Positions 6,711 to 56,143 of a DNA stretch of 64,000 bases are shown here, in pieces (position 1 is the stretch's first letter; the number at the start of each line of letters is the position of its first letter). Where the stretch lies: the NCBI GenBank assembly GCA_973895155.1, contig OZ316899.1, forward strand, positions 15,527,974 to 15,591,973. Direction: 5' to 3'. This DNA comes from Marsupella aquatica. Lineage: Eukaryota > Plantae > Marchantiophyta. Made by a program: the position numbers and the translations under genes. The notes beneath the pieces are model-generated. The model saw only the letters and a list, made by a program, of their open reading frames with translations. It made no database searches and had not been told where the DNA came from.

Positions 6711-6962
6711 TTGAAGTAGTTACAAACCTGCTCCAATGATCTGCAAACCTCCCTCCCAGATGAAGTCAACTACACAGTGCAGCCTGGACACCCACCAACC
6801 AAGACATACATAAATACAATGCCAGCTTGCGAAACTTTGCCACATAATGGGAATGAAAATTATTCTCATATATCATGGATGGTACAATTGCAGCCTTGCA
6901 AACAAAGGCCTAGTCATCCCGGACCTCAAGTCATGAACAACGCATCCATGTACTATCAGGGA

Positions 6963-15062: not shown

Positions 15063-17838
15063 GGACAGGACCTAGCACCTGAGCTTGAGAAGAAGACCAG
15101 TGAATTACTAATTGAATTTCAGGATGTGTTCGCATGGAGTCACCAAGATCTGAAGGGAGTAGACCCAAAATTAGGAGAACACCGAATTGATCTAATGTTG
15201 GGGGCCAAATCGTTTCGACAACCAATTCAAAGGATGAACCCTAAGTATTCCCTGATGGTCAAAACTGAAATCGACAAACTAGTGGAAGCCGGATTCATCA
15301 CTCCAGTCCTACATTCCGACTGGGTGTCTCCAATTGTAATAGTTCCCAAGAAAGCTGGACCCGATGGTAAGCCAAAGATCCGGGTTTGTCAGGATTACAG
15401 GAAGTTGAATGAGGCTATGTTAAAAGACCATTTTCCTTTACCCTTTATTGATATGGTACTAGACATGGTAGCCAGTCATGAACTATACTCATTCATGGAT
15501 GGATACTCTGGTTATAACCAAATCAGGATTAGGCAGGAGGATCAAATCAAGACGGCCTTCATCACAGAATGGGGGATCTATGTCTTCAATCGTATGCCAT
15601 TTGGACTCTGTAACGCACCAGCGATGTTCCAACGATTAATGGTGAACATTTTCCATGACTACTTGAGAAAGTTCATGGAAATCTTCATTGATGACTTTGC
15701 AGTCTTTGGGAAGGCATCAAAGCATGCTAAATACCTCAGGAAAACCTTCATGAGATGCAGAGAGGTAGGTCTCAAGTTACACCCAGATAAATGTTTCTTT
15801 GGAGTAATAGAGGGTGTGCTACTAGGTCACAAGGTATTAAAGAAGGGCATTGAGATTGATAAGGGTAAACTAGCAGTGTGGCTAGATATCATGCAACCTA
15901 AGAACATAAAGGATGTGAGATCCTTCTTGGGATGCATTGGTTATTATCGCCGGTTCATCAAGGATTTTGCCAAGCTAGCTTTACCATTAACCAACATGCT
16001 CAAGGCAGGTGTAGACTTTGAACCCACACCAGAACGAGTAATAGCAGTGGTGGAATTGAAGCAGATGTTAGTGGAGGCCCCAATCATGATAGCACCAGAC
16101 TGGAACAAGGATTTTCATGTCTTTGTAGATGTCTCAGGCTTCTATATCGGCTCAGTACTAAGTCAATTGGATGAGAAAGGGAGGGACCATCCCATATACT
16201 TTGCCAGCCGCCAGCTTGCCGATGCCGAACGAAACTACTCCACCACAGAAAGAGAAGCATTAGGAGTCATTTGTTCCTGTAAAAAGTTTAGACATTATTT
16301 ACTAGGGTACAAAGTAATCTTTCATACCGATCATGAAAGTTTGAAGTACCTAGTAAATAAGCCAGACCTTACAGGCAGGGTAGCAAGATGGATTTTGCTA
16401 TTACAAGAGTTTGACTACGAGCTAAAAATCAAGTCGGGAAAGCTACATGCCAATGCCGACTTCTTTTCAAGGATCACAAGAGAACCTGCCACGGATTGCA
16501 TCGATGATCGATTCCCGGACGAGGAGCTCTTCATTGTGGAAATAGCTGATACATGGTACCCTGAAATTTAACAATTTCTCAGCACATCCAAATTACAGCC
16601 AGGGCTAAGCAGAGAGCAAGCCGCAGTCTTTTTGCAAAAGGTCAGACAATATTAGTGCATTAAGGGCGTACTACACAGGTATGAAATGAGCGGCACGATC
16701 CAAAGGTGTTTGGAGAAAGGAGAAGTAAAATGAGTCTTAAGGGCTATGCATGGGGAGGAGGCCGGAGGACATTTTGCTCCAGTAACCACGTCTAAAAAGA
16801 TATTAAATGCCGGTTACTGGTGGCCCACCTTGCACAAGGATGTCTATCAGTTTATCAAACAATGCGATCCTTGTCAGCGAGCGGGAGGACCAAGGGCGTC
16901 CACAAGACATCCACTGCACCCTATTCTACCTCTGGCACCATTTGAGAAATGGGGTATTGACTACATTGGACCTCTGAAACCATTGACCCATCCTCGGAGA
17001 AACAAATACATAATCCTGGCCACGGATTATGCAACTAATGGGTAGAGGCCAGGCCGACAATGAAGGATGATGCAATTACTACGGCTCAATTCATGTATGA
17101 GCAGATCTTCACCAGGTATGGCGCACCCCTAGAATTAGTTAGTGATAGAGGAACCCATTTTCTCAATGATATAATTAGTCGTTTAAATGAGTAGTATTTA
17201 GTTAGACATAGACCTACTACTCCCTACCACCCAAAGGCAAATGGGTTGACAGAACAAGCAAATGGAATTATAGGAAACATATTAAACAAGACCGTAGCTC
17301 AGAACAAACTCGATTGGGATGATAAATTGTTTGCTGTTGTTTTTGCTTACAATTTAGCCTATAAATCCACTACCGGTCATACACCCCTTTTTTTAACCTT
17401 TGGACAAGAAGCCCTGGTACCCATGCAACTTGAGATTCCTACATTTCAAGTTACAATTGAGGAGAGAGCCTCAGAGGAGGAAAGCCTAAAGGAGCGAGAA
17501 TATAGATTAGAAGCTTTAGAAGAGGCAAGAATGATTTCAGCTGAGAGAGTAGAATATAGACAGAATACCATGAAGCAACAGTATGATAAAAAATTGAAAC
17601 CAGTTAGTATTCACACAGGAGATCTTGTATTACTTTATGACAGTAGGTATAGTAGGTTTCCAGGGAAGCTTTACACTTGCTGGCTAGGACCTTTCAGGGT
17701 ATCAATGAAGTTCTCCAATGGCTCTGTGCAATTGGCCAACATTACTGGAGAGATATACCCAGTTTGCATCCATTATGACCGCCTCAAGAAATACTATATG
17801 GACGAAGATGAAGTTGTTTGCAAGGACGCTTCACAATT

Positions 17839-17851
17839 AAGTGGGGAGCTA
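17839..17851 (+). promoter_or_regulatory. Polypurine tract of family-1 gypsy
   Basis: AAGTGGGGAGCTA lies at the end of integrase, directly before the LTR start TGTGATGC. Confidence 0.8.
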
Positions 17852-19614
17852 TGTGATGCCTAACCAGGAATCACTAGGCCGGTTAAGTGGGAAAACGGAA
17901 GTGTACCCTAGAAATACCTTAGTATAGTTACAAGAATGAGGAAAATATAAACAATTAAGGATGACTATGGAACCCGGGCCGAGGCCGGAAGTAAGGACGT
18001 CGGGGGAGAGAATAAAATTAGGGTTAGGGTGCACTAAGTGTCGGCAGCTAGGGGTAACCAACGATAGGGAAGACCAGAGGAGGAGAGGGGTAAGGACAGC
18101 TCGCGAGGAATGGTGGCTCATTTGCAAGCACAAATTGGGCAGACGACTACGGGAGGTCAACTACTGCCAGCTGCTTAGACAAGCACTCTAGGCGGGAGCA
18201 GATACCAACAAACGACTCAAGGAGGGTATGAGCAACGTCAATCAAGCGACACATTTTTGGGGATGCCTGTTCAAACGGGAAACTGAGTACATTGGGACTT
18301 ACAAGGACGAAGAATCAGAGAGAGCAGCTTGAGAATGGCAGGAGCTCGCTCGACTGTGGGAGCTGCAGAAATCTGTCTTCTTAGGAGGAGAATTCATCAA
18401 GGCCAAGTTCTTGTGGACTCCTACTGCCAATCAGCTTGACGACCTTCTGTTTTGCAAAAACAAGATCGTCGGCATTCGGGACGCCATCAACCGTTGCAAC
18501 GACATACACTGGGAGTTGAAGGGTAGCACAGAGGGGTGGACAAAGGCAACCGTGCTAGGAGAAACATCCACAACAACCGAGATGAAGAGGAAAGGAAACA
18601 ACAACGAAGAGGCCACCCCAGCAAAAAGAACGAGGTCGGCGGCACCAAGGAAGCCAGCAGAGCAGGGAAGCAGGAGGCAGGCGGAAGCCGAAGAGGAGGA
18701 GGTCGATCCCATCAATGCCATTCCAACAAAGGATGACACCTGGAAAGGCTGGGCGGCGACCCTACCAGAAGAAGTGCAACTGCATTTTGCACGGGAGGAG
18801 GATGCATGCTTTACGGCCATGCAGACCAAGAAGTACCAGGGCTTCATGGCCGGATCCGGCTTGGAAGCCTTCGTAAAATTACCATGGCTGAAGCCGGAGG
18901 TGCCGGATTCAGACTTATTAGAATTCGTGGGATCATGGGAGCCCGAGACCAATTCCACAAGGGTGTATGGGAAGGATTTCTATCTCACTCCCCGGGTGAT
19001 TGCCGAAGTGTTTGGCTTGCCGATGGGCAATAAGACCAAAGTAGATACCAGGAAGACCTTGCCAGACAAAGAGTTTCGGTCGTTTCCAGGGCCATCAACA
19101 AAGAATGGCTTCTTTCGAAACACCTGCACCAACCCACACATAGGAGAAATGATTGATTTCTTGCGGGTGACCATGCATTGTAACTTGCCAAGGGCAAAGA
19201 TCGGCAAGGCACAGGTCTATCTGGCGGAGAGGCCAGACCCAAGCCGAGACTACAATGGGTACCTCCTCACCCAACTAAAGAAGATCTTGAAGGAGGAATA
19301 GCTGGTGATCGGCATGGGAAGCATGTCCCGGCTTGGCTATCACATGCCGTTGTTGTGCCGGTATGCCAGAAGTCAGATCTTTGCCCCAGTACTTCCCCTG
19401 CAGGCGAGGGCACCAGAGGAAGTCCCGGAGCAGAGGCCGGAACCAGAGGAGCCCAACCAGCCCGCCAGTCCTACGATCGAGCAGATGTTTCAGCCAAGAA
19501 AAGAAGACTTGCCGATGCAGCAATCAGGCATGCAGAATCTGCTGAAATTGCTGGAAAAGGAGAAATCAGCCTATTCATTAAAAGTGTATTTTCTTTTGTT
19601 CACAAATCAGTCCT

Positions 19615-19700
19615 GAAATGTACACTTTTATGTCCCCAAATGTACACTTTACGAAGCCCAAATGTACACTTTTTGATACCTAAATGTACACTTTATAGGC
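19615..19700 (+). repeat. Left subterminal repeats AAATGTACACTTT (about 4 copies)
   Basis: Directly visible; same motif at the right end. Confidence 0.85.
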
Positions 19701-19960
19701 CAAATCTTATTAGTATTATATTATATTATTATATTATATTATATTAATTATAATAGTATTATATTACTTATTAGTTCACAAAGAACCATGGGATAGAGAT
19801 CATACTTGTAAAAACATTTCCGCACAAAGAAGCCCAGGCAAGGACCATTGATTGATAATGTGTGAAAATAATTATTTACAATTGTGTCCAAACTTACAAT
19901 GAATATCCAGCGCTGGCACCATTTTTACTATCTAATGGGCTTAATACATGAGTCAGATCT

Positions 19961-21094
19961 CTAAACAAAGTGCTCCTTACAATATTTATTTGAGCACGTG
20001 CCTTTGTCTCCTTTACTATCTACCCTAATGTCACGGTTGCAACTCCCTTTATCTTCAGGGAGATGAAATTTGGTGGTGTTGTTCCTAACTGCTATAATCT
20101 CCCGCAAAAAGTGTCTGGGATTTTCTCTATACAGACCTGAATATTCTCGTCCTACAAATGATCTAGCAAGTGAGGTGACAAGTGCATCGTCAAGTTCCAC
20201 CTCAGGACGTAAGCTACATATACGGTGCTTCACAGCCCAAGGAATCTCATTGCTATTGAGGTCCAGCACACTATGCCTATACTGTGACTTCCAAATTTTT
20301 GCTGCACATCTCTTACTAAGTTGATTATAAGTAATCTCATTTTTTGCCTTGTCTCTCTTAATGTGCAATAGAGACCACTTTGGAGAGTTTAGGAGAAGAT
20401 AACAACGAATGTCACTTGCATGTGACAATTTCTCAAGACATGGCCAAAGAATTGTTAGAAGAAAATTGTCTCCACGATTGGCATGGGTGTAGGACACTGG
20501 AAATAGTCCGGTCATGTCTGGGTTGGCAAATGCCTTCAAGGGGGAGTCATCCACAAGGAGTGTGTTGGTTTCATCATATAGATTTCCAAATGCACTCCAT
20601 ACCACCCGAAAATCCTTCAATAGCACATTTGCCTTTCCATTTGTAATGTCACGCCTTTGAATGCTTGTGTCAAAGGCTTCCACCCGTGTGAATACAAACT
20701 TCAGTTTCAACCGCTCCTCAATTGTGAACATCATGTTCAACATTTTCACTGTTCGTGGCATCCCAGCACATGTCCAAATTGCAACGTCAAACCTGTCAAA
20801 AACCAACTTTAGAAACTCATGGAGCCCTGGCCTCTCTGTATACATGCGACTAGTTCCATTTGATCTATCCCAATGCACTCCACTTGAGGTGACAATATTC
20901 CTGGATGTGCCCTTGCTTTGGAATTCAATAGAATCCCAAAGTATTTTATTAAGGTCCAAAATCAGCAACTTCCGCTTGAGGGGACCAGGTCTCAATTCTG
21001 CAAGTGCACCAAACACCATTCTCAGAGAAAAGACCAAAAGTGAACTTTGGATTAGGATTGTCTCAGTCCAAAAATACAAGACAATGGCTGACAA
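19961..21094 (-). CDS. FCP1/SCP (NIF) HAD-family CTD-phosphatase-like protein; probable ATG at 21019
   Basis: KRKLLILDLNKIL, RPGLHEFL...FDVAIWTCA, LLKDFRVVW, NTLLVDDSPLKAFANP. Resembles the DLNGxL subfamily. ORF is uninterrupted. Confidence 0.88.
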   Translation of the reverse strand: MSAIVLYFWTETILIQSSLLVFSLRMVFGALAELRPGPLKRKLLILDLNKILWDSIEFQSKGTSRNIVTSSGVHWDRSNGTSRMYTERPGLHEFLKLVFDRFDVAIWTCAGMPRTVKMLNMMFTIEERLKLKFVFTRVEAFDTSIQRRDITNGKANVLLKDFRVVWSAFGNLYDETNTLLVDDSPLKAFANPDMTGLFPVSYTHANRGDNFLLTILWPCLEKLSHASDIRCYLLLNSPKWSLLHIKRDKAKNEITYNQLSKRCAAKIWKSQYRHSVLDLNSNEIPWAVKHRICSLRPEVELDDALVTSLARSFVGREYSGLYRENPRHFLREIIAVRNNTTKFHLPEDKGSCNRDIRVDSKGDKGTCSNKYCKEHFV

Positions 21095-23684
21095 AAAAGA
21101 AAATTAACCTACATACCGTTTTTAGAAGCCTCACAATGTGTAGACGGATATGGAGACTTTAATTGGTGAGCGCATTCTGTGAGACCGAGAAGTATTTTAG
21201 ATTGATATGAATAAATACAAAGTCAAAGGCTGAATTTCATTCCGAAATAAGAGATCCGTATTCATCAATAATCATGTCAGCACCAAGCTCCTGTTGGATT
21301 TCAAAATTGACATCTGAAGTACTTTGTTCTACCCAATAAGGTGAAGTCCAAACAGGAGTTATCAACCCCAATTCTCCACTCTTATACTCCTCCTTATTGA
21401 GAATTGAAGGAGCAGCATCCAATGATATTTCTTGGCCTCGATTTGGCCCACTTTTCCACACATAAAATCGTGCGTTGCATTCCAATGACCTCCATCCAGT
21501 TGATCCAACTCTATTTCCTTTCTTTTTTGAGAGCGGAAGGACAATAGGACTCCCCGAGTGTGAACGAACGAACACCAATTTGTCATCAGAAGCTGAAAAG
21601 AGTGTGTCGGGACAAATTGAAGCACCTGCCTGGTTGTCAACAGCCGTTGATGCATTTCCTCCTAGATTGATCGGAATGTCAGGCAATCCGCCAGTCTCCC
21701 CCTCGGTCTCCCCCCGAGTCAATTCTTTAGTTTAAGCTTCATTTGAATCTCCGAGCCTCGTTGCGCCTTCATTGATCAGATTGGTTGAAGAAAGATGATC
21801 AAACGTATCAACCCTTGCTCCTTCCAGTTGCTCCATCTGTCCTCCCAACGTTGTTGGATTGGGATCATCCTTGTCCAAGTTATCATCAACTTGAACTTCA
21901 TTGGGCCCCGGAGGGATGTCATCTAAACCAGATGAACGGTTTGGTGCAAGTCCAATATCATCATCTACATCGTAAGGCTCACCTTGACCAACACGGTCAT
22001 CCAAATTCTTGACATATGCCTTCTCTGATGCCTCTACGCCTTCAGCCACTTTGTCAGCAACATCTTCAGACTCAGAACCATCGGATTCAACAGCGATAGC
22101 TACAGCCGCAACAGTGGTAGCCCACTGTCGAGAATTTTCAGCAAGTGATTCACAATGAGCTTTAAGTGAGGGAACTCTCTCGCAAAGGTAGGAAGCAAAA
22201 GCTTCCACAAAATGCCTCTCAGAGTGAGAGTCACAATAAACAAAGCATTCCCTATCGCAAAAAAATGATGTCTTCATGACTTGGCCACCGGAGAAAAAAT
22301 CTAGAACCAAATCTCCCGGTTCTGACAAGGATTCAATAATCCTTCGGATCATCCGCGTGGGTTTGGCATGAGGATTAACCCACCCTCCGCGACTGCCAAC
22401 TGTCTCAAATCGAGGGGCCATATTCATAATCTTGACGGCCTCTTCCGGGTCCAAAACCACTTTTAGGTCGTCGTTTTGTGTCCCCTCATCTGATTCCTTA
22501 GCCTTCCCCTTTCCCTTGTCGATCTTGCATACTTCGTAATCAACATCCTTTGCAGTATACAAGAATTTTGGCTTTGGATAGTTGGGCTTGAAAACTTCAT
22601 TCCAATTGACGTCTTCATCTCGAGAAATCCCCGCAAAGATAACTTCTTCAATCCCCCCACCCCAACATGAGTCATGAGGGTGCGGTTGATCATCTCGAGA
22701 ATAACTCCCATACTCAATGTGAATGGTCAAAGCTTTCTCTTGTCCCAGTTTATGAAGGGCACCATGGACATTCAATGCAAGTTGTCTAGGATGAACTGTT
22801 ATCGTCACAACAATCATGGGATTTTGTGGAAGCTCCACAATGTATTCAAAGAGAACAAGAATCTCTGCTTCAGTCCATTGTTTTTGCGGAAGCCGGCTAA
22901 AATCAACAATGGCAAGAGGGCAGGTCGGAGGAGCTTCTTGCAATGACTCTGGATCAATGGTCTTCATGAGATTGTCGCTAAAAAATGTAGCCCATGGTAG
23001 GGTCCAAGAACGTGATCCTCCGCCAAATTTCTGGCAGTATATATCATCTAGGCGGAATGCCAATGCTGTCGGCAAGATTGCGCTCTCCCGCGTATGATTT
23101 GGTTTTAAAAGGTTGGCAAGATAGACCTTGCCAGCGGCTCTTCGACACCTGCTGAACTCTGAATCAATTGCTAGCGTAGGAAGAACCTCCACTACTTTCC
23201 CCCAATTAGTATTTGCCGGGAAATTCACCGCATCCTTGGTGCAATAGTAGTCTTCAATAAGGGACTTCAGTTTCCGCACGATCTTCACATCTTTGGCCAA
23301 CTCCTATATAGATGGCATGTCTGATTTATTAGAGGCATCTTTCTTTAGCAATACCTTTCCTGACTTCACCCGCGTCAGTATTCTTGTGATGTCTCGTTGT
23401 GAGATCAACTCACCATCAAAACAACGAAACATGGCAACAGTAATTGCTTTTTCAGAATTCTCATTTCCTTCTACCCCAACTCCATCGGGAAGTTTCCCAT
23501 CCAACCACAACTGGCATACCAAACTCCATAACTCAAAAAGAGCATCGTCCGCAAACAGTAACCAGTAAACATTTCGACAATCTTTCCTTCCCATGGTCAT
23601 TCTTGCAAGAGCCAACCAATCCTACAATTGCAAAGGAAAGTCTGTTAGTTCTCCATAACTCAATTGTTTGACAGCACTCAGGTG

Positions 23685-24080
23685 CGGACTGAGACCATCA
23701 CAGTCCAACACAGAACTAGACAGTATCAGTGGAAATATTCTATTGAATGTGCATGATTTAGTTTGGACTGGGACCATCCCAGTCCAGAACAAAACTAGAC
23801 AGTATCAGTGGAAAAATAATCTATTGAATGTGTATGAATCCATTTGGACTGGGACCATCCCAGTCCAAAACAAAACTAGACAGTATCAGTGGAAAAATAA
23901 TCTATTGAATGTGCATGAATCCATTTGGACTGGGACCATCCCAGTCCAACACAAAACTAGACGATATCAGTGGACAAAGATTCTACTGAATGTGCATGAA
24001 TCCATTTGGACTGGGACCATCCCAGTCCAACGCAAAACTAGGCGATATCAGTGGAAATATTCTACTGAATGTGCATGAAT
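23685..24080 (+). repeat. ~80-bp tandem repeat (5 copies), each with the palindrome TTTGGACTGGGA-CCA-TCCCAGTCCAAA, inside a predicted intron
   Basis: Directly visible; lies between donor 24118 and acceptor 23622. Confidence 0.9.
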
Positions 24081-24869
24081 CTACGGTATTGTACCCATCA
24101 AGCAGTAACACTTCGTACCTGAATTTTTTTATTGTCTTGAACGTTTGTTTTGTTGTCCCCATGTTTTGGCCGGCTAGGTTTTCCACATTCCACAAATTGT
24201 CGCCTAGCATGAACGACTGTATCTTTGAAGCATGACTGAAACACCATCGTGCTATTGATCGCATTAGATCGCATTGAATGCTCAACTAATATTGACGATG
24301 GTGTTCAATGAGATAATATTCTTGACTTTCGAAATTCCAGCTTTTTCGCCAATGCTGTCAGCTTGGCATCCTTGTTTGCCCATTCTCGAATCCATCTGGC
24401 TGCTCTAGCCGAATGTTGACCGCTAATGGCAAGGAATTGAACCTCGCCCTTTTTCATGGCTGCTACAAAGTCCCTCCTATCTGATTCTGTGTTGTCATAC
24501 TGCATTAGGTTTCTATGTTTTGTAGTGTAAGGAATCAAGTCTGCTATGTGTGGTTCATGCCCCGGATTTCTTATCAGGGAATTGGCCACCTCCTTTACAT
24601 GTTCTGCATTCAACATTCTGTAACAGAGTCTTGCCGACGCGGGGAAAATACTGTCTACAGGAATAGAAAATATCAAATTGATCCCAAACGTATAATATTG
24701 CTCCATTTGTTGCAATACCTCATTACCTTCTAAGACCTTCTTCTCCTCAGGAGCGTCCAACTGCTCGTCCACATCTTGTGAATGCACTGTCAGGTTTTCT
24801 GTAGTGTCATCCATGATGGCACTGTCAATTTTCTGTTTCTTCTTCTGTCTTGGTCTCTTTTCACTTGCA

Positions 24870-25065
24870 CTCGGCTTCTCAACCGGACGTTTCTTCTCAA
24901 CTGGCTTCTCAACTTGGCTTCTCGTACTCGGCTTCTCGTACTCGACTTCTCGTACTCGGCTTCTCAACTGGCTTCTCAACTGGCTTCTCAATTGGCTTCT
25001 CAATTGGCTTCTCAACTCGGCTTCTCGTACTCGGCTTCTCAATCGGAAGTTTCTTCTCAACCGGA
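24870..25065 (-). repeat. Coding 12-bp-based repeats (EKPV/EKPS units) containing a frameshift
   Basis: Iterated GGCTTCTCAACT / GGCTTCTCGTACTC. Confidence 0.85.
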
Positions 25066-25924
25066 GGTTTCCTTTGGCTTTGTTTTCGTTTTCCCACTGC
25101 TCTTTGAGAGGTCGCTACTGTAGTTCCCGCGGTCTCTGTTGTAGGTTCTGAAGCTTTCTCTGGCGCTTTCTCGGGCACAGGGTTTGTATTCACCGCTGGA
25201 AGCTTTCTCGTCTTGGACAAAGATTCTATCCATTGCTTTGCTTTGACTAAATCAAACTTGGGAGCAAATGCAACATCCTTATCAATTAAAACACCAGGCT
25301 CCTCCGATTCCAACGATAATAATCCAGCTTTCTCAAGTAAATTGCTTAACGTCCAGGTAGTTGCAAAAGAAAAATTGCCTTGGTGCTTCATCATGTTGAG
25401 TTTCAAATATTGAAACCCATACATAATGTCGACTGGAAGCATACCAGTTACCCCGGCGACCAACTTCTTTGTGTCATAGGTCTTTGGAAAAAATCCCATT
25501 GACAAAACGCTCAATTCCCCACTTGCGTGCCATTCGACATTGAATTCAGAGGAGTATGCCTTTGACAGAAGGTTAACTTTAACCCAATAGGACTTATCGT
25601 GCATCTCGAGAATGACCGTATTCATCCCTCTCCCTCCAATGCCAACAGAGACCACAGGTCCGCAAACAAAAGTCAGGCTATCATTTCCTCTGCACTTTAA
25701 GGTCAAAATAGGTTCAATCGTGGTTGATGGCACTTCATTATTAAGCGGGGTTCTTGAGAACTCAAGCCCCCATCGAAAGTGTGGGGATCTCTCATCTAGT
25801 AAGAATCCGTCCAGGCAGTGGGTCGGTGCAATCGCGGGTTTGAAAACAACAAGATCGCTCCCTGCATCATAAACGTCATCCATGTTAGACTTGAAACCTT
25901 TAAAACATTCGAATAACTCTTGTT

Positions 25925-26127
25925 GGATTAGGATGGTCCTAGTCCAACTTGAGATGGTTTTAGACTTGCTCCTACAATTGGGATTCAATCTCCTAGATGG
26001 ATTAGGATCATCCGAGTCCAAGTTTGGATTGGGATGGTCCGAGTCCAAGTTTGGATTGGGATGGTCTGAGTCCAAGTTTGGATTGGGATGGTCCGAGTCC
26101 AACTTTGGACTCGGATGGTCCCAGTCC
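25925..26127 (+). repeat. 27-bp quasi-palindromic tandem repeat (TTTGGATTGGGATGGTCCGAGTCCAAG), about 6-7 copies
   Basis: Directly visible. Confidence 0.9.
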
Positions 26128-27374
26128 TCTAAGACTTAGGGAGGATAGGTGATGGATACTTACTAGGGATTCGTGATTGAAATTGTCTAGAGTCTTCGAG
26201 TGCCAGTTCCACACTGTCGCTCATAGAGGAGAGGTCAAACTCCTCCGTTTCTTCCACGTAGGACATCACAAGGACGCGATTCGCTTCCATCTTTCTAACA
26301 TGTGGCAGCGTGACATGTGGCATCTTAGCAGGCATCCAATCTAGGGCAATAAAAAGAATGGAGATGGAAGGTGGAAGGCGGAGGCAGGCGGAGGCGGGGA
26401 GGCAGAGAGAGAACGGAGAGCGGAGAGAGAGCGGAGAGCAGAGAGCAAGGAGAGCGAGAGGAGAGCAAGAGAGTGAGGAGGAGAGCGAGAGGAGAGCGAG
26501 AGAGCGAGAGAGCAAGGAGTGAGAGAATGAGAATGAGGTCCTGGCTGGACCTCTCCGTCCCTTTACCCCCTCCTGCCTCACCTCGGCCTGTGTACGGCCG
26601 GTTGCCTCCTTCTACTGCGTACGGCCTGCTCTGGCGTACGGCCTGCTCCTGCATACGGCCCGTTGCCCTCACCTTGAATACGGCCTCCTTCCTTGATGTC
26701 CTGCCTACCTAACAGCCTTCCATGGTAGTCCCCGTGCAATTAGGCTCGTGAAGATAAGGTGTGTCCCCAAGCTAAGGTGAACGCGTACTCAACCCTTATC
26801 TTCACGCGATTTCCGGTTGAGCCGACTCGAGCAAAGGGTATAATTTGGGAGACGCCCACTTCGGAGCTCATTCTTGTTCTAGTTTCCCAAATCTAAGCTC
26901 CATGTAATCCGGAGTGGAGTTTCTCTTAAAGTGTTATGTATTGAGCCACTTACCTTCATTGGGTCAGCTTAGCCAGCTTCTTGACATTTGGAGTCCTCTC
27001 AGTTTATCTTTTACAGACATGTGTGGTGTAGGGTTCAGTTTGTTTTTTACTCCCAAAATTTAGTGGCATATAGCTTGTATTTCAAGGTTTTGGGAAGTTT
27101 TTACCATTATTCAAACAACAATGTATACCCCTTGGATGTGATATTAATCTTCTACCAGATCTTAATACTAAGGTGAGTATAAGGTTAATGCATTCAAATA
27201 TAAGGTTCCATTATTTCATGAAACTGTATGTAGACATTAGGGTCTGCCTTAAGACCACGCAAACTTTAGGCTACACCATATCTAGGGAGATCCGTAAAAT
27301 ACGGGGTCTTCCTAAATTTGGATTTTTCTTAGCTTAAGATGTTTGAAGTCTATCTCCCATTACATCATGGGTTG

Positions 27375-28200
27375 GTCTAGGATGGTCCTAGTCCAAGTTT
27401 GGATTCGGATGGTCCTAGTCCAAGTTTGGATTAGGATCATCCGAGTCCAACTTTGCATTGGGATCATCTGAGTCCAACTTTGGATTGGGATCATACGAGT
27501 CCAAGTTTGAACTTGGATGGTCCAAGTCCTAGTTTGGATTGGGATGGTCCGAGTCCAACTTTGGATTGGGATCATCCGAGTCCAAGTTTGAACTTGGATG
27601 GTCCGAGTCCAAGTTTGGATTAGGATGGTCCGAGTCCAAGTTTGGATTGGGATGGTCCGAGTCCTAGTTTGGACTTGGATGGTCTAAGTCCTAGTTTGGA
27701 TTGGGATGGTCCAAGTCCAAGTTTGGATTGGGATGGTCCGAGTCCAAGTTTGGATTGGGATGGTCCGAGTCCAGGTTTGGACTTGGATGGTCCCAGTCCT
27801 AGTTTGGATTGGGATGGTCCAAGTCCTAGTTTGGATTGGGATGGTCCTAGTCCAACCTTGGACTGGGATGGTCCCAGTCCAAATCTTGAATCGGAGGATC
27901 GTAGTCCAAATCCAGACTTGAAGGATTGCAGTCTAAAGCCGGACTTGGATGGTCCCGGTCCAAATCCGGACTCGGATGGTCCCAGTCCAAATCCAGAATC
28001 GGAGGATTGTAGTCCAAATCCAGACTCGGAGGATTGCAGTCCAAATCCGAACTTGGATGGTCCCGGTCCAAATCCGGACTCGAATGGTCCCAGGCCAAAT
28101 CCAGACTCGGAGGATTGCAGTCCTAATCCAGACTTGGATGGTCCCGGTCCAAATCCGGACTCGGATGGTCCTAGTCCAAATCCAAATTGGAGGATAGTAG
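27375..28200 (+). repeat. 27-bp quasi-palindromic tandem array, about 30 copies, with a higher-order variant block after ~27880
   Basis: Directly visible; lies between candidate donor AG|GTGAGT (~27173) and acceptor TGCAG (~28254). Confidence 0.92.
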
Positions 28201-28254
28201 TCTGAATCAAAATTTGCATGAGTTTGGTTTTAATCCATTTTTTTCAGTGTGCAG

Positions 28255-31200
28255 GAAAATAGGAAAAGGATGTCTCAAAGGTTTTCTAGGGGCGATGATG
28301 TTACCTTGACAATCGATGGTTACGACGTTGGAAATGAGACAGTTCAAAAGACAAATCCGCGAGAGAGTGTTCAAAATATTGTGCTGGGAGAGAATCGAAT
28401 TGGGGTTCTCATTGAGAAGGCCTTTGGTGAGACTAGGAAGCTCCCTTTTCCAATGCCTAGGGCAGAAAATCTTCATGATGACATTGACTCATGTGTCATT
28501 TGGGATATGTCATGTGCATATCAATCTGCGGATAAGATTACTCAAAAACGCATCAGTATTGGTAGTTGTTCGACTCGAAAAGATAACAACATCCATAATT
28601 TTGCAAATGTAGAGGAGGATGCTTCGACCACCCTAAGGCCAGGCGATGAGGTTGAAATGTTTATCTCTGGCCATTGTGTGGCCTTTGGAGTTGTTTTCAA
28701 GACCGATCCAATGGAGAGATGTCATAACATATTACTCGGTGAGTCTCGGGTTAGTGTAAAAGTCACAGATGTGATTCATGGTAGTAAGACTTTACCTTAC
28801 GCACATGGTGGAGCTGCAACAATTGAAGAGCAAAGGGCTCCTGGGTTCTATGGGATGTGGTTGACGTCCACAATAAAGTGGAATGTTGATATTGATGGGA
28901 GCAACAAATCTTCCTCTAAGAAGCAGAAGGACAAGGCAAATTTTGTTTCATAGTCTTGTTCGGCGAACACCACGGACACTAAGTGTGACTATTTTCATCG
29001 GGCAAACTGGATGTCAGAGTTGGTTGAATTCTACACTGGTTTGGATCGAACCAAAATGGTTGCCACTGGAATGATCACTGTCCCTCAAGTGACAGCAGCA
29101 GTTGATGATGAAATTCTTGGTGATGACCATGTTGGGATTGCTGTGAAAGATGTCGTGGCAGCACAATACTTTCCCAACATCCACAAGGGAGTAGTGAGTT
29201 TGATTCGATGGCGGATTGATTCAACAAAACTAGTTGCAAATGGAAAATTTTTGTCAGACATTTTGGTGGAAGGTTCTGAGAGGATGGACTCAATGGATAG
29301 GGATGAACTCAATGTGGATGTAAGTGATAGAGGAGTACTGTGTTCAAGGCCGTACAATTTCAACAAGAGGAATCAAGTAGATCCGAATGAAAAGAAGAGG
29401 AGGTTGTTGGAAACCAAGGCAATTTCAAAAACAACAGAGGCGTCAATTGATGACGTGAAAAGAGAAAATTGTTGCAAGCAAAAATGTTGTCTCATTATGC
29501 CAAGGGAAAACATCAAAGATATTAGGATGGAATTTCATGGGATGTCAAGCGAGTCAAAAATGTCACACATTTTCAACCTCTTTCACTATAGAGAGGATGA
29601 TGTTCGTGATAAGGGACACCATGTTCTTAAGGGTATGGTCGTATGCAGACATGCATTTGCAATTATCCACGGTTTTAGCCACACCAAATATTATGATTAC
29701 AAAAGGAGATATGTGGAGGGTTGCAAAATTGGGTTCCATGGCAATACGGGCTTGATGAAAACAAGGGCAAATACCTTGCATGCACGAGCTCTGTTGGAGG
29801 CTTTTTTGACTCGAAATGCAGAGCCCATGCCTCATATGCCTTATGGAGGGGCACATGGGACAGACTCTACTGAGTACCGTCTTCCGGCGTGTTACAAGAA
29901 GCTAGAGATTCTGGAAGATGTGAGAACAAAGATGAAGGAAGAAGGGCTTCCTCCTGTCACAGAGAATACTCTCTACAAGATCTGGAGCAACTCATTTGCA
30001 AACTTCAGTTTTCATAAAGATGGTGCATTTGCCAAGTGTACTCTTTGTTGTGAATACAAAGACAGCTTGATGTGAGAAAGAAGGAAAAAAGAACGTGCTG
30101 AAATTGAAGAAAAGCGAGCGCAACATCTTTGTGAGCAAATGTCACGTAGATATGTTTACTACGCTCATCGAGTGATGGCCAAACAACACCCAGGAGAATA
30201 TCTTTGCATTATTCATGACAAGATGGATCAAGCAAAGACATGGATTCCAAAAATGGTTAGTACTCCTAAATCTCTTTCGGGTCATGGAATGCCGCTACCT
30301 ACTGCTCTCACAGGGATGTTGACCCACGGGAGGGATCCAGGAGTTTATGCACACTTTAGTGTCACTGGCCTTTGGCCAGGAGATGCCGATTTCACAGTGA
30401 CATCCTTGGCTAAGTGTCTTTGAGACCTTGAAGAGTACAATGGAGACAAGACAGGTGACATGTTGGATGGCCTTCATTGGGAACCTCACATACCTTTCTT
30501 TCAAGCCCTACTTGACTTTGAAGCATTTTTTACGGGTTATTTGGAACCAAAGAATATACCGGTGAATAGGTATATTGGTTCTGAAGATGGAGGTGAGAGT
30601 CGGACTGAGACCATCCCAAACCAACAAGATGAGGATGAAGGAGAAGACATGCAAGGAGAGCAAGGCAGTCCATCGTTCAAGCCCTTGCCAAGGCACCAAA
30701 CATTGCAGATGGATAATTCAGCAAAGGACAACAAAAACCAGACTGTCATGGCATTTTGTAGCGAGCTTGTGAGTAGAGGAGTATTTGAAACTGTTCAAAT
30801 GTCTTTTCTAATGGTTGGTCATACGCACAAAGATGTTGATGCACTCTTTTCAAAGGTATCATATCAAGTTCAGCACAAAGAAGTTGCAACCCTCCTTGCT
30901 CTTACGGCAGAGGTATGGGAATGCGAGAGCATTCATCCAGTTCCCAGATTGATAAAAGAATATCTTCAAACTTTCAAGGTGAAAGATATTCAAGGTCACT
31001 CAAAACCTGTATCATTTCTTTTCTCTATGAGAGATAATATACCAATATTTCAGTATAAGTCCCATGTAAAGCAAGCTTGGGCTCCAGTTGGTGGAAGGTG
31101 CATTTGGGCAACAGATCTGACAACAAATTCTCTTCTTTTACCTAGTGGAGAGCCCTTAGCTAAATCCATTGGAGAGATACACAAAAAATCTGAAGAGATT

Positions 31201-32007
31201 ATCCCATTTCTTAACAAGTACCTTGATTTTTTGAGAAGGAGTTGCACTGATGAGACATCTATAGCATATAAGGAAAGATTTCCTCTTGTGAAATATTGGG
31301 AGAGAATTGTGGAGTTGTTGACAAATGGGCTCGCACTAGAAGGAGAGGGAAGTACTCAATTTCCCTTGAAAAACAGATTTTGGCCTAAGACTAACCACGG
31401 CACTGGTTACAAGGTCAACCAACCGGAACAAAGTGGTCCTCCAAGTGAAGATGAGGAGAATGCAGAGATAACGTCTCTTCAAAATGAGGTCTTGGAAGAG
31501 ATGGAAGATCAAGCAACACCATTTGTTGGATCTCGAGCTGAGAGAGAACAAGGACGATGGATTCCTTTACAGGATATTTGTGAAGGAAACTTTGTATTTC
31601 TTCGACCCGAGGATGATTGGGAGAATAAAAATGGTGGAGGTCATTTCTGGTTGGTGAGAGCTTTGGGTTTGGTGGACCCAAAGCATGAAGTCCCAACTAC
31701 ATCTTCAACAAACCCTTCTCTGCCTCGACAGTACGCTCCAATGTTCCCAGTTGAATGGTGGAGGCCTAAACACTCTAAACTTGATGTGACTGAGAGTGCG
31801 CGGTATCTAAATTGTTTTGTGTCCACTAAGACATGGGAACGAGATCCAGGGTTTGGTGAGAATACTCAACATTGGCAGTATGCAAATTCTGCAATGTATG
31901 GTTTTAAATCTGGAATGAAAGAAGAAAACATGGCGGGCAGAGGTTTGAAGATCCCTCGAAATGTTCTACAAACTGTCCAAAATTATCTTCAAAGGATGGA
32001 CAAGTAG
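28255..32007 (+). pseudogene. Sola-like (GHTHxDxD-type) transposase with three N-terminal En/Spm-Tnp1-like repeats; one frameshift and two TGA stops
   Basis: CCKQKC...CRHAF...HGNTG, FAKCTLC, IIHDKMDQAKT, LQMDNSAKDNKN, FLMVGHTHKDVDALFS. ORFs 29011, 30139 and 30460 are in frame across TGA at 30073 and 30421. Confidence 0.8.
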
Positions 32008-32257
32008 ACTTAGTTGTTAGAAGCTATAATAATTAAATAGATAGTTACTAGTTTTTATGTAACTAAGATAGTCACTCATTCAAACATAGTAATTTACGTA
32101 CTAGTTATTTACTATTCTAATAGTTTTAATTTGATACTATCTCCTCATTTTCTAAACTTTTGATCATTATGAATATGAATGTTTGCTTTTTCTACATAAT
32201 TAAAAATATTTTTCTATTCATTCCTTTCTTTTAAATGATTATAAGAAGAGTTGGTAG

Positions 32258-32585
32258 GCAAATGTACACTTTTTAGGCCAAATGTACACTTTGTTGCACT
32301 AAAAGTTACACTTTCTAGACCAAATGCACTTAAATGTACACTTTTTAAGCCAAATGTATGCATTTTTCACTCAAATGTACACTTTTTAGGCCAAATGTAC
32401 TCAAATGTACACTTTTAAAGCCAAATGTACCTATTTTGATGTTCAAATTTACACTTTTCATTGCCCAAATGTACACTCTTTGGGCCAATTGTACACTTTT
32501 CTATCCCCAAATGTACACTTTTCATTGGCCAAATGTACACTTTTCCAAGCCCAAAAGTACACTTTTCATTGCCCAAATGTACATA
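32258..32585 (+). repeat. Right subterminal repeats CCAAATGTACACTTT (more than 10 copies)
   Basis: Directly visible. Confidence 0.9.
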
Positions 32586-35580
32586 AATCAAATAATAATA
32601 CACTTTTAATGAATAGGCTGATAGAAGAGAACGGCACCGGCAACGACAACGGCACCGGCATTGGTACAGGACACTGCCCCAGAGGTCGGCCTAAGCCGAC
32701 TCAGGAGGGAAAACCCCTTTACCGGAGCCAAGGTGAGAAGGAGGCCAGAACACGAGTCGGGAGTTCGAATGTATGTGGGAGCCTCCAGCCCCGAATCAGA
32801 GGCAGAGCAACCTAAGGCTCCTGCCCACGGAAAGCAGAGGGAGAAGACAGCCTGGAACCCAGAGGAGGAACCAGGGCCCGTGATCTATGAGGCCGTTTTT
32901 ACGGCGGGACCAGGAGAACAGAGGGGGAAGCCGGGAGTCCAAGCAGTGGAGGAGGCGATGGAGGACTACAGCAATGATAACTCCGGCTATGGGTCAGATC
33001 ATCATGTACCAGGAGTAAGAACCTATGGCCGCTTTATCCCCACGCTTCCAAGAGTAGTTCGAGGGGATCCCACCCAACAGAGCAGCCCCGAGTCCCCCCC
33101 ACCAGATGTCGCTCCCCCAAGCTTTGACGGCATAAAGCAGATGGCACAAGAGTTTCAGGAGCGACTCAGAGAGGAAGAGAAGGCAGCCCTGGATAGGGAG
33201 AAAGAGGAGGAGATTGGCCGGAGGACATCAGGCGGCTTGCCGAAAAAAGAAGCAACCCTCTTTCCACCATAGAAGAAATCCGCAGGGCGGCTTGGGAACA
33301 GAGGCCGAGGTGGTTGATGCCGATGACTTCTACTTACTCCACCTATGCTAAAGATAGAGCCATGGAGTACGGGGAGATGTATGGGGAACTTGCGCTCAGC
33401 ATCTTTGGGGAGGAGTTGGAGCAGGGACCCTTTTTCCAGAGGGAGATATTGGAGAAGCACCAATTAGAAGAAGCGATGGCTTTGGAGAGAAGCAAGAAGG
33501 ACAAGGTCATAGGGCGGCTTAGGGAGATGGAAGCCGAGGTGGAAGACCTAAAGGCGGCCAAGAAAGCCCAAGATGAGCTACGGATTAAACGGCATGAGCT
33601 AAACATCGTGCAGGGGCAGTTGGATACCGCGTAGTCTAATAATCAGATTATCAAGGATAAACTGACTCAGACCCAAGGAGAGTTGGCCGAGGCGGTCAAA
33701 GAAAGGGAGAAGTGGAAACGAGAGCTGAGAGACGCAGAGGAGGCCCACATAGCAGCAAACAACCGGGCCATGGCGGAGACTCAGAGAAGGGAGAGGGCGT
33801 TGAAGGAGGAACTCGAGGATATCCGCGGAGCCCTAGAGCAGAAGGAGGCCGAGTTAGGGAAATCCTATCAAGGGATTATTATGCTACAACAGGAGCTTGC
33901 TTCCCTGACGGCCAGCTTCAAGGCCGACCTCTGTGAGAAAGACGACCAGCTCAACCAGACTTATGCCAAGATGAATAAAATGGAGTCTGATGTCGTGACA
34001 GAGCTCGACGAGGAGCTAAGAGCAACCCAGGAGGAGAGGGCTACCTTAAAGAAAGAGTTGGAAGAAGCCCAGAAGGAGCTGAAGGAGGCAAGGAAGGACC
34101 TGGACGAAACCCAGGAGGAGTTGGAAGAAACCACAAGGAAGATGGAGAACTTACAGCGGCGGGCCGACAACCAAACAGAGCGGCTGAAGAAACAGACAGC
34201 AGTATTTAAGTGCTTAGCTTCATCTGTTCCAACTCCAATTGTGGGAACCCCGTTACCAGGAGTGGTACTGGCAGAAGGACAAGCCGAGACACACGCCCTG
34301 ATGTCGGAGGTAAGTGGCAAAGGGAAGGGACCAGCTGCCAAAACAGGGAAGAAGAAGAAGCGGAAACCTTCTGGGTCTGGGAGTTATACGGCTCCTCCAG
34401 CCTTTGTCACCAAGGAGGTAAACCCGACACCAACTTCCGGCATGGTCACGACAATGGATCCACCTGTCAAGGAAGGTGGGGATGGCAAGACTGAGGCCGG
34501 GACAACTATTGATGAAGCCGTGGTAGAAAATCCACCACTAGAGCCAGCCGAGGAAACCATAGCCGGGGAGGCCGTGGCCGATACTGATGCCGAAGCCGAG
34601 GGTGGACCCAGTCAGGCCGATGAAGAGTTGACTTGGTCCGGGGCAGGTAATTTGTTAGAGGAAGGACCGACGGCAGTGGCTACGGGGGAAGCGTTGGGGG
34701 CGTCCATTGAGGATCCACCACCGGTGTCGTGACGGTGCAAGGGCGTCGTTCCTTTTAGGAAGGGCGGACGTGGAGGTAGGAGGCGTGAGTGGGTAGGGCG
34801 GGCTCGGATCTCCAAGTTTAGGCTGAGGATCAGGACCAGGAGACGGCCCTGACACTTAGATTAGTGGGATTGCGGATCCACTAGTAGGAGCAACACTTGT
34901 GCTCCTGCCTCACTGTACTTAGGTAGATTACAGTTAGGTAGATTATAGGTAGGATAGATTAAGCTTACGCTGCTAAGAATTGGCGGATCCACTTCCAAGA
35001 TAAGTACCTGGGCAGCGAGGAGTCCAGGGCCTCTTTCTTAGCAAGTTTTTAGTTGCACAGCAGGGCTGGGATCAAGTAGTAAGAGAAGCTCTCGGTTAGT
35101 TATACAGTGACCCTTGTGTATATTCATGTTTCCTCATGCCTAAGAGCTAAATAGAGTTGGCCTCACGGCTTAGTTTGCAGAACTTGTGTATGAGATGTAC
35201 TGTTTGTATGGCAAGTGCATGGTATAACTCAGTCAGAATGAGTCATTTTGCTATTTGTGTGTCGTATTAACTTGTGTGAAGAGTGCCCACATCAACTAAT
35301 AGATGAAGGGAAGTAAGCAAGGGAGTGAGAGTTGGATGTGTCGAGCTGAGAGAGGTCTTAGCGGCTTAACCAAGCCAATTGGGGATCATTCCGGCGGCGG
35401 AATCCAAATATACCTAAAGAAAAGGAGGGGAATACAAGGAAGGCCTAGATTAGGCCGGCTACGTATCTCATGACCCGATGAAGGATCTGTCCAGTATATG
35501 TGTGTAAAATGTTAATAGTAGTAGTAGAAGGAAGTTAGCAGCGTCCCATGCCGCTAAGCCGCGGAAATGGCCTCGCCGAG

Positions 35581-36979
35581 GACAAAACCTGCCTCAAGAA
35601 GAGCATCAAGCGCTGCAACTCAATGATTCCCACATCCTGCTTCGGTAACTGAGACACCCTTCTCTTGAACTCCCTTAGGAGCTCTTGCGGCCCCTTCAGC
35701 TTCTTGTTCTTGTCATTCACCCAATCCAAGAAGGTAGCCTGCGTGACCCGATCAGCATCCTCCGCTTGGAACTCCTCTTTCATCTTCTGGTCGAAGTCAT
35801 CCCAACCCTCAGCTGACTCAACGATGGTCTGCACCATCAAACTCAACTCGTTCTCAACCAGCACCATGAACTCTTTCACGGCTGTCCCTTCGTCCAACTT
35901 GTAGATAGCTGCTTTTGTCAAGTAAGACTTAAGGTAGCTTGTCACATTTCTCCCATCGAACTGCCCATTCTCTTTTAGAACCTCTTGGAGACACCAAGTA
36001 GTTCTATTCGCTTCCCTGTTCGCCCTTTCCGACTCAAGCTCTTCCTTCCTTATGGTTCTCATCATCGACATGACGATGCTCGATATCGAATCGACTTCGT
36101 CATAGTCACCCATCTCATCCAATCGCCCCAAGGAATCCCCAGTACGGTTGCCAATGTCGCGAGGACTTAAAGTTAGGGGCTCCTTGGGCAAACTACACAT
36201 TTCTGGCTGCGATCGGGAAGGTGACAAGCACTTTTTGGAGCGAACTCTCACTCCTTTATATTTTTTACTTTTCTCACAAAGGTTACAATAGGTGCCCTCG
36301 AGTAAGCTTGCCCGCAAGAGTCTGGTAGCTGGCCCTACGGCGGGCCGCTACCTCTAACTTGTCGGGTAGAACTCCTCGAATGACTAACTACTCAAAATCT
36401 GATGGAAAAACTATCCTCCTTAGCTCACAAAAACCAAAAACTCAACTAGCTACTCCACTGGTCTAAAACAGCTCGCATGGAACTCGGGCCTGGACCAACG
36501 ATGCTCCAAACTTGAGAAATCCTCTCCTGGATCGATAAGACTCCAAACTCGAGAAATCCCCGCCTGGATCAACGAGACTCTAGACTCGAGAAATTCCCCG
36601 CCTGGATCGAAAACTCCCCACCTGGATGGAAAACTCACTCGGAACTCCAAAACCGCCACACAATAGTCGAGTTCCGCAGAACAGAGCGAAACTCACAGAA
36701 TGCAACTCAACACATCTCAGTAGACAACCGCCAACCTCAATGAGCCGAGACTCAAGTCTTAAGTAGCATCAGGAACCCAACCATCCAGCCTGAGCCAACT
36801 GCCAGCAGCAAGGCTCATCCAAACTCCAAGCCTGGTGACGATGAGTCACCCAATCACCAAACCTCAATCCATCCAACCAAGCAGCCCCTCCGAGTCAGCA
36901 TGCACGCAATCCAACCTGGAGGCCTTGCCCATCATCCCCTATAAAAGCCATTCCTGAGCCAAAATCTTTTGGCACGACA
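35581..36979 (-). mobile_element. Family-3 gypsy copy A: 5' LTR (36155-36979), PBS and truncated gag
   Basis: LTR TGTCGTGCC...CTCGCGACA. PBS TGGCAACCGTACTGGGGA (36153-36136). gag MGDYDEV...GQFDGRNVTSYLKSY. Confidence 0.88.
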
Positions 36980-47700: not shown

Positions 47701-47840
47701 CAGTAAGCGCACTTAGCGCTACTTTACGTACTAAGTTAGGAGCATTCTGTGCGTCCCTCCCTGCCCAAACCCTCATATTTACGAAGGATGTGCCTGTCTA
47801 AGCCAAAGCCCGGGTTAAGGCCTAGGCTGACGATGTGACA

Positions 47841-56136: not shown

Positions 56137-56143
56137 TATAAAA
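56137..56143 (+). promoter_or_regulatory. Candidate TATA box of the family-2 LTR
   Basis: GTATAAAAGGGG followed by a pyrimidine-rich leader, ~105 bp upstream of ATG 56245. Confidence 0.55.

Follow-up and report, generated by a model that had tools for sequence, protein, structure and literature searches.

A gene-bearing LTR in two copies

The family-1 unit in the window (the whole 64-kb stretch of Marsupella aquatica DNA that was analysed) is a Ty3/gypsy LTR of about 4,740 bp. Copy B is the 3' LTR of an element whose decayed pol (15068-17830, + strand) holds reverse transcriptase (RT), RNase H and integrase in gypsy order (Pfam matches RVT_1, E = 1e-23; RT_RNaseH, E = 2e-35; Integrase_H2C2, E = 2e-13). 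A polypurine tract (PPT; 17839-17848, +) lies downstream of these domains and 3 bp upstream of the LTR, which opens with TGTGATGCC at 17852. Copy B is split into a left part (17852-19566, +; 85% identity to the start of copy A) and a right part (32621-35577, +; 85.6% identity to copy A over 2,694 columns) by a nested DNA transposon of 13,054 bp (19567-32620) with 24-bp TIRs and AT on each side, and is cut at 35577 by another gypsy element. The full LTR length of 4,743 bp is an estimate, copy B stopping 73 bp before the LTR end. A DUF7869 match (E = 1e-32) was recorded in the nested TIR transposon, outside the LTR proper.

The parent element of copy B is truncated on its 5' side at about 10850, and its PROT-RT region, the position of the aRH in TatI/II, is missing through this truncation. 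The gap between RNase H and integrase is about 100 codons and integrase ends at the PPT, so that there is no space for an aRH there. No Pfam match to a chromodomain was obtained 3' of the integrase, and the RT motifs look Athila-like.

Copy A is a solo LTR (11131-15062, - strand; 3,932 bp) with TG..CA ends (TGTGATGC..GCACCACA), flanked on both sides by a 5-bp target site duplication (TSD), GGACA (11126-11130 and 15063-15067), and without terminal direct repeats. Two internal segments present in copy B, of 736 and 84 bp, are deleted from it. Its host is the pol of the same-family element that ends in copy B, and, among the 15 joints listed out of 91, empty-site joints (11122/11127 to 15068) were present in three of four public runs (X1, X2 and X5).

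The 5' LTR, gag and primer binding site (PBS) of family 1 were not found within the 64-kb window, and the PBS junction is known from public runs. The LTR 3' end continued into a common sequence in contigs of four of four runs, and in three of these (X2, 22 contigs; X5; X6) the junction, read along the element strand, was CA-TTTT-TGGCGCTAGATGGAGGGGG; this includes a PBS-like site that begins with TGG 4 nt past the CA end and presumably resembles the 3' end of plant tRNA-Asn. X4 contigs carried a noisy version of this junction. Other contigs had unrelated flanks from 11131 outward. No contig spanning the 5' LTR and the ORF was found among the public-run contigs, which are short. Summed depth over the ORF was 3.4-9.8 times that of the flanking pol in three of four runs, with a step at the unit ends that was absent from run X6, and was 0.6-1.0 of the depth of the 3' tail; run depth here serves to place the step and has no copy-number meaning.

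A second family has the same solo layout. The family-2 solo unit (55779-59789, +; 4,011 bp, TG..CA, TSD CAGAG) holds an intact homologous ORF of 880 aa (56245-58887), preceded by a single TATA at +359 and followed by 902 bp after the stop. A partial second copy (45974-47841, +) retains the 3' third of the ORF and the LTR end at 77% DNA identity. The two LTR families share a layout of one TATA, an ORF and a tail of ~900 bp, with no detectable DNA similarity between them.

Because the PPT precedes the gene, the PBS-like site follows it and the solo copy is bounded by a TSD, the gene resides in the LTR and outlasts solo-LTR formation. The initial annotation had placed it in a ~4.7-kb LTR, downstream of a PPT and a TG start and also in a TG..CA solo LTR with a 5-bp TSD, and had proposed that it survives solo-LTR recombination; these claims were borne out. 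It is very improbable that the gene is instead an ordinary internal 3' extra ORF whose LTR boundary was misread, with short true LTRs and copy A as a deleted or non-autonomous element. Extra ORFs do normally lie in the internal region, as described in PMC6317226 and PMC7264820, and a full-length family-1 element is absent from the window and the run data. Against this, the PPT precedes the ORF rather than following it, the PBS-like site lies at the far end of the unit, copy A has no terminal direct repeats, ORF depth is close to that of the tail and far over that of pol in three of four runs, and family 2 repeats the solo layout.

Frame, selection and homologues of the LTR gene

A single gene fills about 73% of the family-1 LTR. 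Its frame comprises 1,238 codons from the first ATG (17967) and 1,151 from an ATG at 18228, counted by reading through, since both copies in the window are broken. Copy B is interrupted by stops (18330, 19299, the insertion junction, 33632) and by a frameshift near 33205. The copy A gene is broken by deletions, leaving a remnant (12043-14686, -) with an MSNV start at 14686, a stop at 12043 and the middle deleted. The ATG at 18228 is the likely start codon, because codons 1-70 are near-neutral and unmatched in homologues, while the downstream sequence is constrained and can be aligned with the N-terminal end of Calypogeia fissa protein P0007 (z = 5.1, 0 of 1,000 shuffles). The first ATG was rejected as the start (dN/dS 0.99, 0.47-2.47, over codons 1-70, and no homologue match), although these codons are free of indels and a weakly constrained extension upstream of 18228 may exist. 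The large ORF of the initial annotation thus stood, while its ~1200-aa size was reduced to about 1,150 aa.

The family-1 LTR gene is maintained by purifying selection. With one sequence pair per family as the basis, dN/dS was 0.31 (0.21-0.44) and 0.32 (0.24-0.41) in family 1, with bootstrap intervals below 0.45, and 0.27 in family 2 (partial copy vs. solo copy). Within the family-1 gene, dN/dS was 0.19 over codons 71-190 (numbered from the first ATG) and 0.10 in the core; non-coding controls gave 0.73-0.75, with intervals that include 1. A ratio near 1, which the initial annotation had set against its own reading, was not seen for the gene as a whole. The presence of an LTR-resident gene under selection is held with high confidence.

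Three regions were distinguished in copy B: the likely start with an N-terminal helical domain (18228-18590, +), placed by dN/dS and the P0007 match; a conserved globular core (18760-19400, +; boundaries approximate), for which a PMD/VANC-type fold is predicted via homology to family 2; and a coiled-coil-like region (33370-34200, +; boundaries approximate) with sub-threshold Pfam coiled-coil matches and a dN/dS of 0.27. The cores of the two families share 31% identity over 143 aa (E = 2e-18). Their direct N-terminal match is weak (z = 2.2), and the connection runs via P0007.

A search of representative proteins returned 19 matches, and two of the ten examined were Calypogeia fissa proteins. 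Homologous-protein searches gave no match, one of them being uninformative as it covered proteins of 1,379-3,935 aa only, and metagenome scans with the family-1 core and P0026 as queries returned no locus. None of 16 aligned members had a Pfam match to DUF1985, PMD, Transposase_28/32 or Athila; DUF1985/DUF287 profiles matched none of the 16 at E <= 1 and none of the further core-bearing proteins, and the PF10536 (PMD-A) profile had no Pfam match in the family proteins. A PDB sequence search gave a single match (E = 1.7), which was disregarded. An ENV-like or movement protein is scarcely credible: the sense ORF does directly follow pol, an env-like position (PMC7264820), but the longest hydrophobic run in the 880-aa homologue is 5 residues by a crude transmembrane test, and the viral fold library gave nothing at E <= 0.001.

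Predicted fold and known systems

The family-2 core was modelled with family 1 included in the alignment (pLDDT 76.7, pTM 0.75; one of five models confident). Across 48,161 chains its best match was VANC21 (rmsd 4.8, 201 of 227 residues), at Z = 7.2, and at Z = 7.5 on re-alignment, values in the range (7-8) that the tool rates as common for unrelated models; the runner-up had Z = 3.8. In Foldseek, VANC21 was the sole row with a TM near 0.5 (E = 2.9). The family-1 N-terminus-plus-core model was poor (pLDDT 50, pTM 0.25) and did not retrieve VANC21; its best match, ISW1a (Z = 5.2), was set aside on account of the model's quality. The VANC21 lead is new relative to the initial annotation, which offered no function. 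On this modelling the LTR protein probably has a PMD/VANC-type fold.

VANC21 (DUF1985; Arabidopsis VANDAL21 MULE; PDB 9LNK/9LNJ) recognises short motifs and removes methylation from its own family (PMC5735166), and is described as structurally like MAIN/PMD, with coiled-coil oligomerisation predicted (PMC13547354; 10.1101/2024.09.27.615353). Like the family-1/2 protein, it is an accessory protein that a transposon encodes, and both have a coiled coil and linkers of low complexity. It differs in its carrier, a Mutator-like DNA transposon rather than a gypsy LTR, and in sequence (8-11% identity over the matched core). Binding and demethylation are known for VANC21, whereas the family-1/2 protein is likened to it by predicted fold. 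A further apparent difference is that no clear tandem array of target motifs was found in the LTRs by region/k shuffle tests; TAATCTA, present five times in copy B, exceeded 100 of 100 shuffles (one significant result of 18 region/k tests) and was not significant in copy A. MAIN/MAIL1/MAIL2 (PMD-C) share the VANC fold, short DNA motifs and a link to chromatin state, a likeness taken from papers (PMC5418596; 10.1101/2024.09.27.615353) and not from direct comparison, and differ in being angiosperm host genes. The fold leaves the direction of effect unfixed, because the host proteins MAIN/MAIL1 silence with the same fold.

Extra ORFs are also carried by OTA non-chromoviruses, as Ogre PMD-A (PF10536), Retand Transposase_28 and Athila ORF-1 (PMC6317226; PMC5418596; PMC7264820; PMC11963269), PMD-A being encoded by gypsy elements (PMC5418596); the roles of plant gypsy extra ORFs are given as unknown in PMC7264820 and PMC11963269. 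The family-1 element resembles these in having an accessory ORF, a non-chromovirus-like gypsy character, an LTR of close to 5 kb, a PBS-like site that is not of the Met type and a 5-bp TSD, and the proteins are alike in a globular domain with a coiled coil and likely in fold group. The OTA ORFs are internal, whereas the family-1 ORF lies past the PPT and inside the LTR, and would therefore occur twice per element and once per solo LTR. The family-1/2 proteins also have no Pfam match to any of the OTA families, and their host is a liverwort.

LTR-resident genes have mainly been described in retroviruses (MMTV sag; nef overlapping U3), and the sag protein is about a quarter of the size of the family-1 LTR protein. 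MMTV sag is likewise a complete accessory ORF within an LTR, present twice per provirus with an LTR promoter upstream; it differs as an unrelated membrane protein of a mammalian retrovirus, and the family-1 gene takes up 73% of a 4.7-kb LTR. The sag ORF occupies U3 and has a promoter of its own there (PMC9412291); for the family-1 ORF a U3 position is inferred. Literature searches by narrow phrase matching listed no description of a gene residing in the LTR of a plant retrotransposon; the supplements of PMC6317226, which give extra ORFs element by element, may contain such cases.

LTR layout and proposed role

The sole TATA[AT]A in the whole LTR (17946-17951, +; position +95) is identical in copies A and B and, judged from sequence, is likely the promoter of the LTR gene. 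The non-coding 3' ~900 bp (34733-35577, +), with TAGATT repeats and a TGTA cluster, likely hold poly(A) signals and R/U5, and possibly a genomic-RNA promoter. TAGATT occurs four to five times past the stop in copies A and B and once or twice in family 2. Divergence in this tail was 3-13% per 200 bp vs. a dS of 0.36-0.42 in the ORF, and conservation across the LTR peaks in its last 900 bp. Placement of the ORF in U3 is slightly favoured over placement in a 4-kb R region.

The latter placement is also part of an alternative that is, as a whole, judged improbable, in which the protein regulates the element's transcription or RNA handling (trans-activator, export, poly(A) read-through control) and its ORF sits in a giant R heading the genomic RNA. 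A TATA followed by a TGTA cluster is the textbook order for start and end around R, and in each LTR the ORF lies between the sole TATA[AT]A, on its upstream side, and the TGTA cluster; aORF proteins have also been proposed as akin to retroviral accessory factors (PMC7264820). However, this layout would require strong-stop DNA of 4 kb and would place a leader of 4.6 kb ahead of gag, conservation is strongest in the last 900 bp, and no RNA-binding fold was found.

The preferred reading is that an accessory gene of PMD/VANC type was relocated into the LTR. The gene would be transcribed from the TATA close to the LTR start, and its mRNA would receive a poly(A) tail about 400 nt past the stop, within the TGTA-rich zone; with these predicted signals on either side, every LTR, solo LTRs included, would be a self-contained gene. 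The coiled coil may form oligomers, and the protein would bind short motifs in the LTR of its own family and keep the family's copies active in trans. With the ORF in U3, genomic RNA may start from a second promoter that lacks a TATA and lies in the conserved last 900 bp, as in MMTV sag. We put an anti-silencing role for the protein at even chances. Marginally favoured is the account in which a gypsy LTR holds a selected gene whose product, with a predicted DNA-binding core of PMD/VANC type and a predicted coiled coil, likely serves as a family-specific anti-silencing factor. Somewhat short of even, and put forward tentatively, is the fuller proposal that in liverwort gypsy elements the LTR is an anti-silencing cassette, in which a VANC/PMD-fold protein is coded within the repeat that it binds, gene and target co-evolve, and each solo LTR produced by host recombination acts as a new source of the factor.

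An unlikely competitor, though less so than the RNA-handling alternative, is an LTR-encoded DNA- or chromatin-binding protein that steers integration or anchors the pre-integration complex, its own family and repeat-rich chromatin being examples of possible targets. The insertion of copy A into pol of an own-family element, the dense repeat nest of the window, the lack of a chromodomain match after the integrase, and a coiled coil that could scaffold are consistent with it. A single self-insertion is nevertheless an anecdote, the nearest fold match has an anti-silencing role, and persistence in solo LTRs would be of little use to a targeting factor.

Solo-LTR formation is the usual host route for stripping LTR elements of coding capacity; in these elements, of which there are at least two diverged families, an entire gene under selection remains in place afterwards. 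Gene-bearing LTRs of this kind will be taken for host genes by LTR finders and gene annotators. If the fold holds, a testable function becomes available for the extra ORFs of plant gypsy elements, which have long lacked an explanation, and the intact family-2 gene offers natural material for a liverwort epigenome test. It would also bear on the direction of descent between PMD genes and retrotransposons, a matter left open in PMC5418596. VANC is termed dicot-specific, and derived from MAIN, in PMC13547354. Should the cassette proposal be true, this would be the first VANC-type retrotransposon anti-silencing system, and the fold in retrotransposons would predate both the split of bryophytes from vascular plants and the VANC genes of dicots and PMD genes of angiosperms. 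CpG depletion was milder in the LTRs, at 0.61-0.90, than in pol, at 0.44, which lends weak backing to the anti-silencing reading.

A gene under selection very probably resides in the LTR of two families

Self-comparison of the window matched 17852–19008 and 32920–35592, inverted, to a single block at 11189–15062 (85% identity). Copy A of this Ty3/gypsy LTR (family 1) occupies 11131–15062 on the minus strand, starts with TGTGATGC, finishes with GCACCACA and is flanked on either side by GGACA. It is located within a pol gene, with RT and RNase H (15068–16571) directly beyond it, followed by integrase, a purine tract (17839–17848) and the TG at 17852 that starts copy B. Copy A is an insertion, as its empty site (joints 11122/11127 to 15068) was found in public sequencing runs X1, X2 and X5. 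The pol gene belongs to an element of copy A's own family in the opposite orientation, a single case of possible self-targeting. Copy B is split by a nested element (19567–32620; 13,054 bp, 24-bp TIRs) and ends prematurely at 35577, 73 bp short of the LTR end; its full length was estimated at ~4,743 bp, and copy A lacks 736 bp and 84 bp relative to it.

The window supplies the PPT and the solo form of family 1, with no 5′ LTR of the family within it. Contigs of four public runs were aligned to the LTR 3′ end, and in 4/4 runs contigs exited into a common sequence, which in X2 (22 contigs), X5 and X6 was CA-TTTT-TGGCGCTAGATGGAGGGGG on the element strand. By position and its TGG start, TGGCGCTAGATGGAGGGGG is a primer-binding site, which we take to resemble tRNA-Asn. 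Other contigs split into unrelated flanks exactly at 11131 (X2: 39 contigs, agreement 0.35), and the entire 5′ LTR was spanned by 0 contigs in the runs examined. Because the left end of a solo LTR derives from the 5′ LTR, and terminal direct repeats are missing from copy A, the LTR is very probably the whole 4.7-kb unit; a misread boundary is highly improbable. The initial annotation had placed the gene in the LTR, and the PPT followed by TG at 17852, the solo copy with GGACA and the PBS-like exit sequence bear this out. Summed depth in the public runs rose at both ends of copy A and was approximately flat over ORF and tail. The ORF/pol ratio of summed depth, which does not equal copy number, was 9.8 (X1), 6.5 (X2) and 3.4 (X5), but 0.6 in X6.

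A second, probable LTR family (55779–59789; 4,011 bp, TG..CA ends, TSD CAGAG) holds an intact 880-aa homologous ORF (31% identity over 143 aa, E 2e-18), with a dN/dS of 0.27 against a partial copy, and is the best natural copy for functional tests. This unit is CpG-rich (o/e 0.90) and sits in a LINE. In both families exactly one TATA[AT]A occurs, and it precedes the ORF (+95 in family 1, +359 in family 2); the stop is followed by ~900 bp (912 and 902, respectively), with a TGTA cluster ~400 nt past it. Among 1.84 billion representative proteins 19 relatives were found, and two of the ten looked up were Calypogeia fissa proteins, which makes a liverwort the likely host.

Selection and protein length

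The ORF is broken in copies A and B alike (both dead). Between them, dN/dS was 0.31 (95% bootstrap 0.21–0.44; 346 codons) and 0.32 (0.24–0.41; 548 codons); a ratio near 1, named earlier as evidence against the gene, was not seen. By region, values were 0.10 (core), 0.27 (coiled coil) and 0.54 (tail). The non-coding 3′ part of the LTR, used as control, gave 0.75 (0.41–1.47) and alternative frames 0.75–1.7, except an antisense frame with shared third positions (0.37–0.38). Small ORF indels were 3, 6 and 84 bp plus a single 7-bp frameshift; the last 900 bp of the LTR carried nine of 1–3 bp. Codons 1–70 from the first ATG gave 0.99, the 87 codons before the ATG at 18228 matched no homologue, and that ATG aligned with the start of C. 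fissa P0007 (z 5.1). The protein is thus ~1,151 aa (73% of the LTR): the large ORF proposed initially stands, with its length of ~1200 aa revised and its likely start at 18228.

Predicted fold and possible function

The protein comprises a helical N-terminal domain, a low-complexity linker, a 200-aa core, a linker, a coiled coil and a tail. Pfam returned sub-threshold coiled-coil matches only. No transmembrane-like run was seen in the intact 880-aa homologue, which opposes an env-like role, the least probable reading considered. The family-2 core was modelled with AlphaFold2 from a 16-row alignment including family 1 (pLDDT 76.7, pTM 0.75; remaining four models 49–56). Across 48,161 chains its top structural match was DNA-bound VANC21, the Arabidopsis VANDAL21 anti-silencing protein (9lnk_A; Z 7.2, rmsd 4.8, 201/227 residues; runner-up Z 3.8), the comparison tool cautioning that Z 7–8 is frequent for unrelated models. 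Re-alignment gave Z 7.5, not independent of the first value, and Foldseek gave 9lnj_A at TM 0.49 (E 2.9), every other row being ≤0.17. The match gains weight from its extent over the whole domain, from its lead over rank 2 and from the nature of VANC21, a plant transposon accessory protein with a fold in common with the gypsy-borne PMD domain. VANC21 was not retrieved with family 1's own poor model (pLDDT 50), so a VANC21-like fold of its core is suggested through homology to family 2.

The VANC21 fold is common to PMD (PMC13547354; 10.1101/2024.09.27.615353), gypsy elements carry PMD as extra ORFs (PMC5418596, PMC6317226), and VANC21 recognises short motifs and strips methylation from VANDAL21 (PMC5735166). 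The LTR gene may operate like these extra ORFs of the PMD/VANC fold group; by profile or context it is no member of VANC or PMD-A. Transcription would begin at the 5′ TATA and end with polyadenylation in the tail, making every LTR a full gene; by analogy to VANC21, its protein would oligomerise and bind the LTR of its own family. Candidate binding sites are TAGATT repeats past the stop, with significant enrichment in only 1/18 tests. The architecture is real and well supported; the proposed function, an anti-silencing role, is plausible, if unproven. Guidance of integration targeting by the protein is an unlikely alternative role.

Between copies A and B the last 900 bp diverge 3–13% per window, and ORF dS is near 0.4. 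This low divergence fits a promoter, R and U5 there, with the ORF in U3, or could stem from recombination between subfamilies. Divergence was also observed to fall sharply at the stop codon (~22–27% to ~5%; 34733–35577 vs 11200–12040), as expected if constraint is strong there or if subfamilies recombined with a breakpoint at this position. The lone upstream TATA fits a giant R and so suits an RNA or transcription regulator encoded in R, a reading slightly less likely than integration targeting. The gene would be positioned as MMTV positions sag, an ORF in U3 under its own promoter (PMC9412291). Plant extra ORFs are assigned to the internal region in the reviews consulted (PMC7264820, PMC6317226, PMC11963269), and anti-silencing ORFs in Athila elements have yet to be investigated according to a 2026 paper (PMC12844716). 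No report of a plant LTR-resident gene was found in the literature searched.

Other features of the window

The 13-kb TIR DNA transposon within copy B has AT on either side and subterminal AAATGTACACTTT repeats. It holds a DUF7869 ORF (30424–32007, plus strand) and two ORFs on the minus strand, one for a NIF phosphatase (19961–21103) and one whose C-terminal part has a short match to an N6/N4 DNA methylase (21732–23303; E 1.4e-6). Carried by a transposon in what is likely a liverwort, such a methylase may be relevant to the enzymes behind liverwort 4mC. Its 27-bp and 81-bp tandem arrays (25923–28202 and 23686–24081) have a common GGATGGTCCNAGTCC core on both strands. Minus-strand ORFs of 804 and 698 aa, both without a Pfam match, and a PHD-finger ORF (NSD-like) at 885–6719 likely represent another DNA transposon with cargo. 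A third gypsy family (35578–50550) has short (~0.85 kb) TG..CA LTRs and is nested repeatedly in itself and in both long-LTR families.
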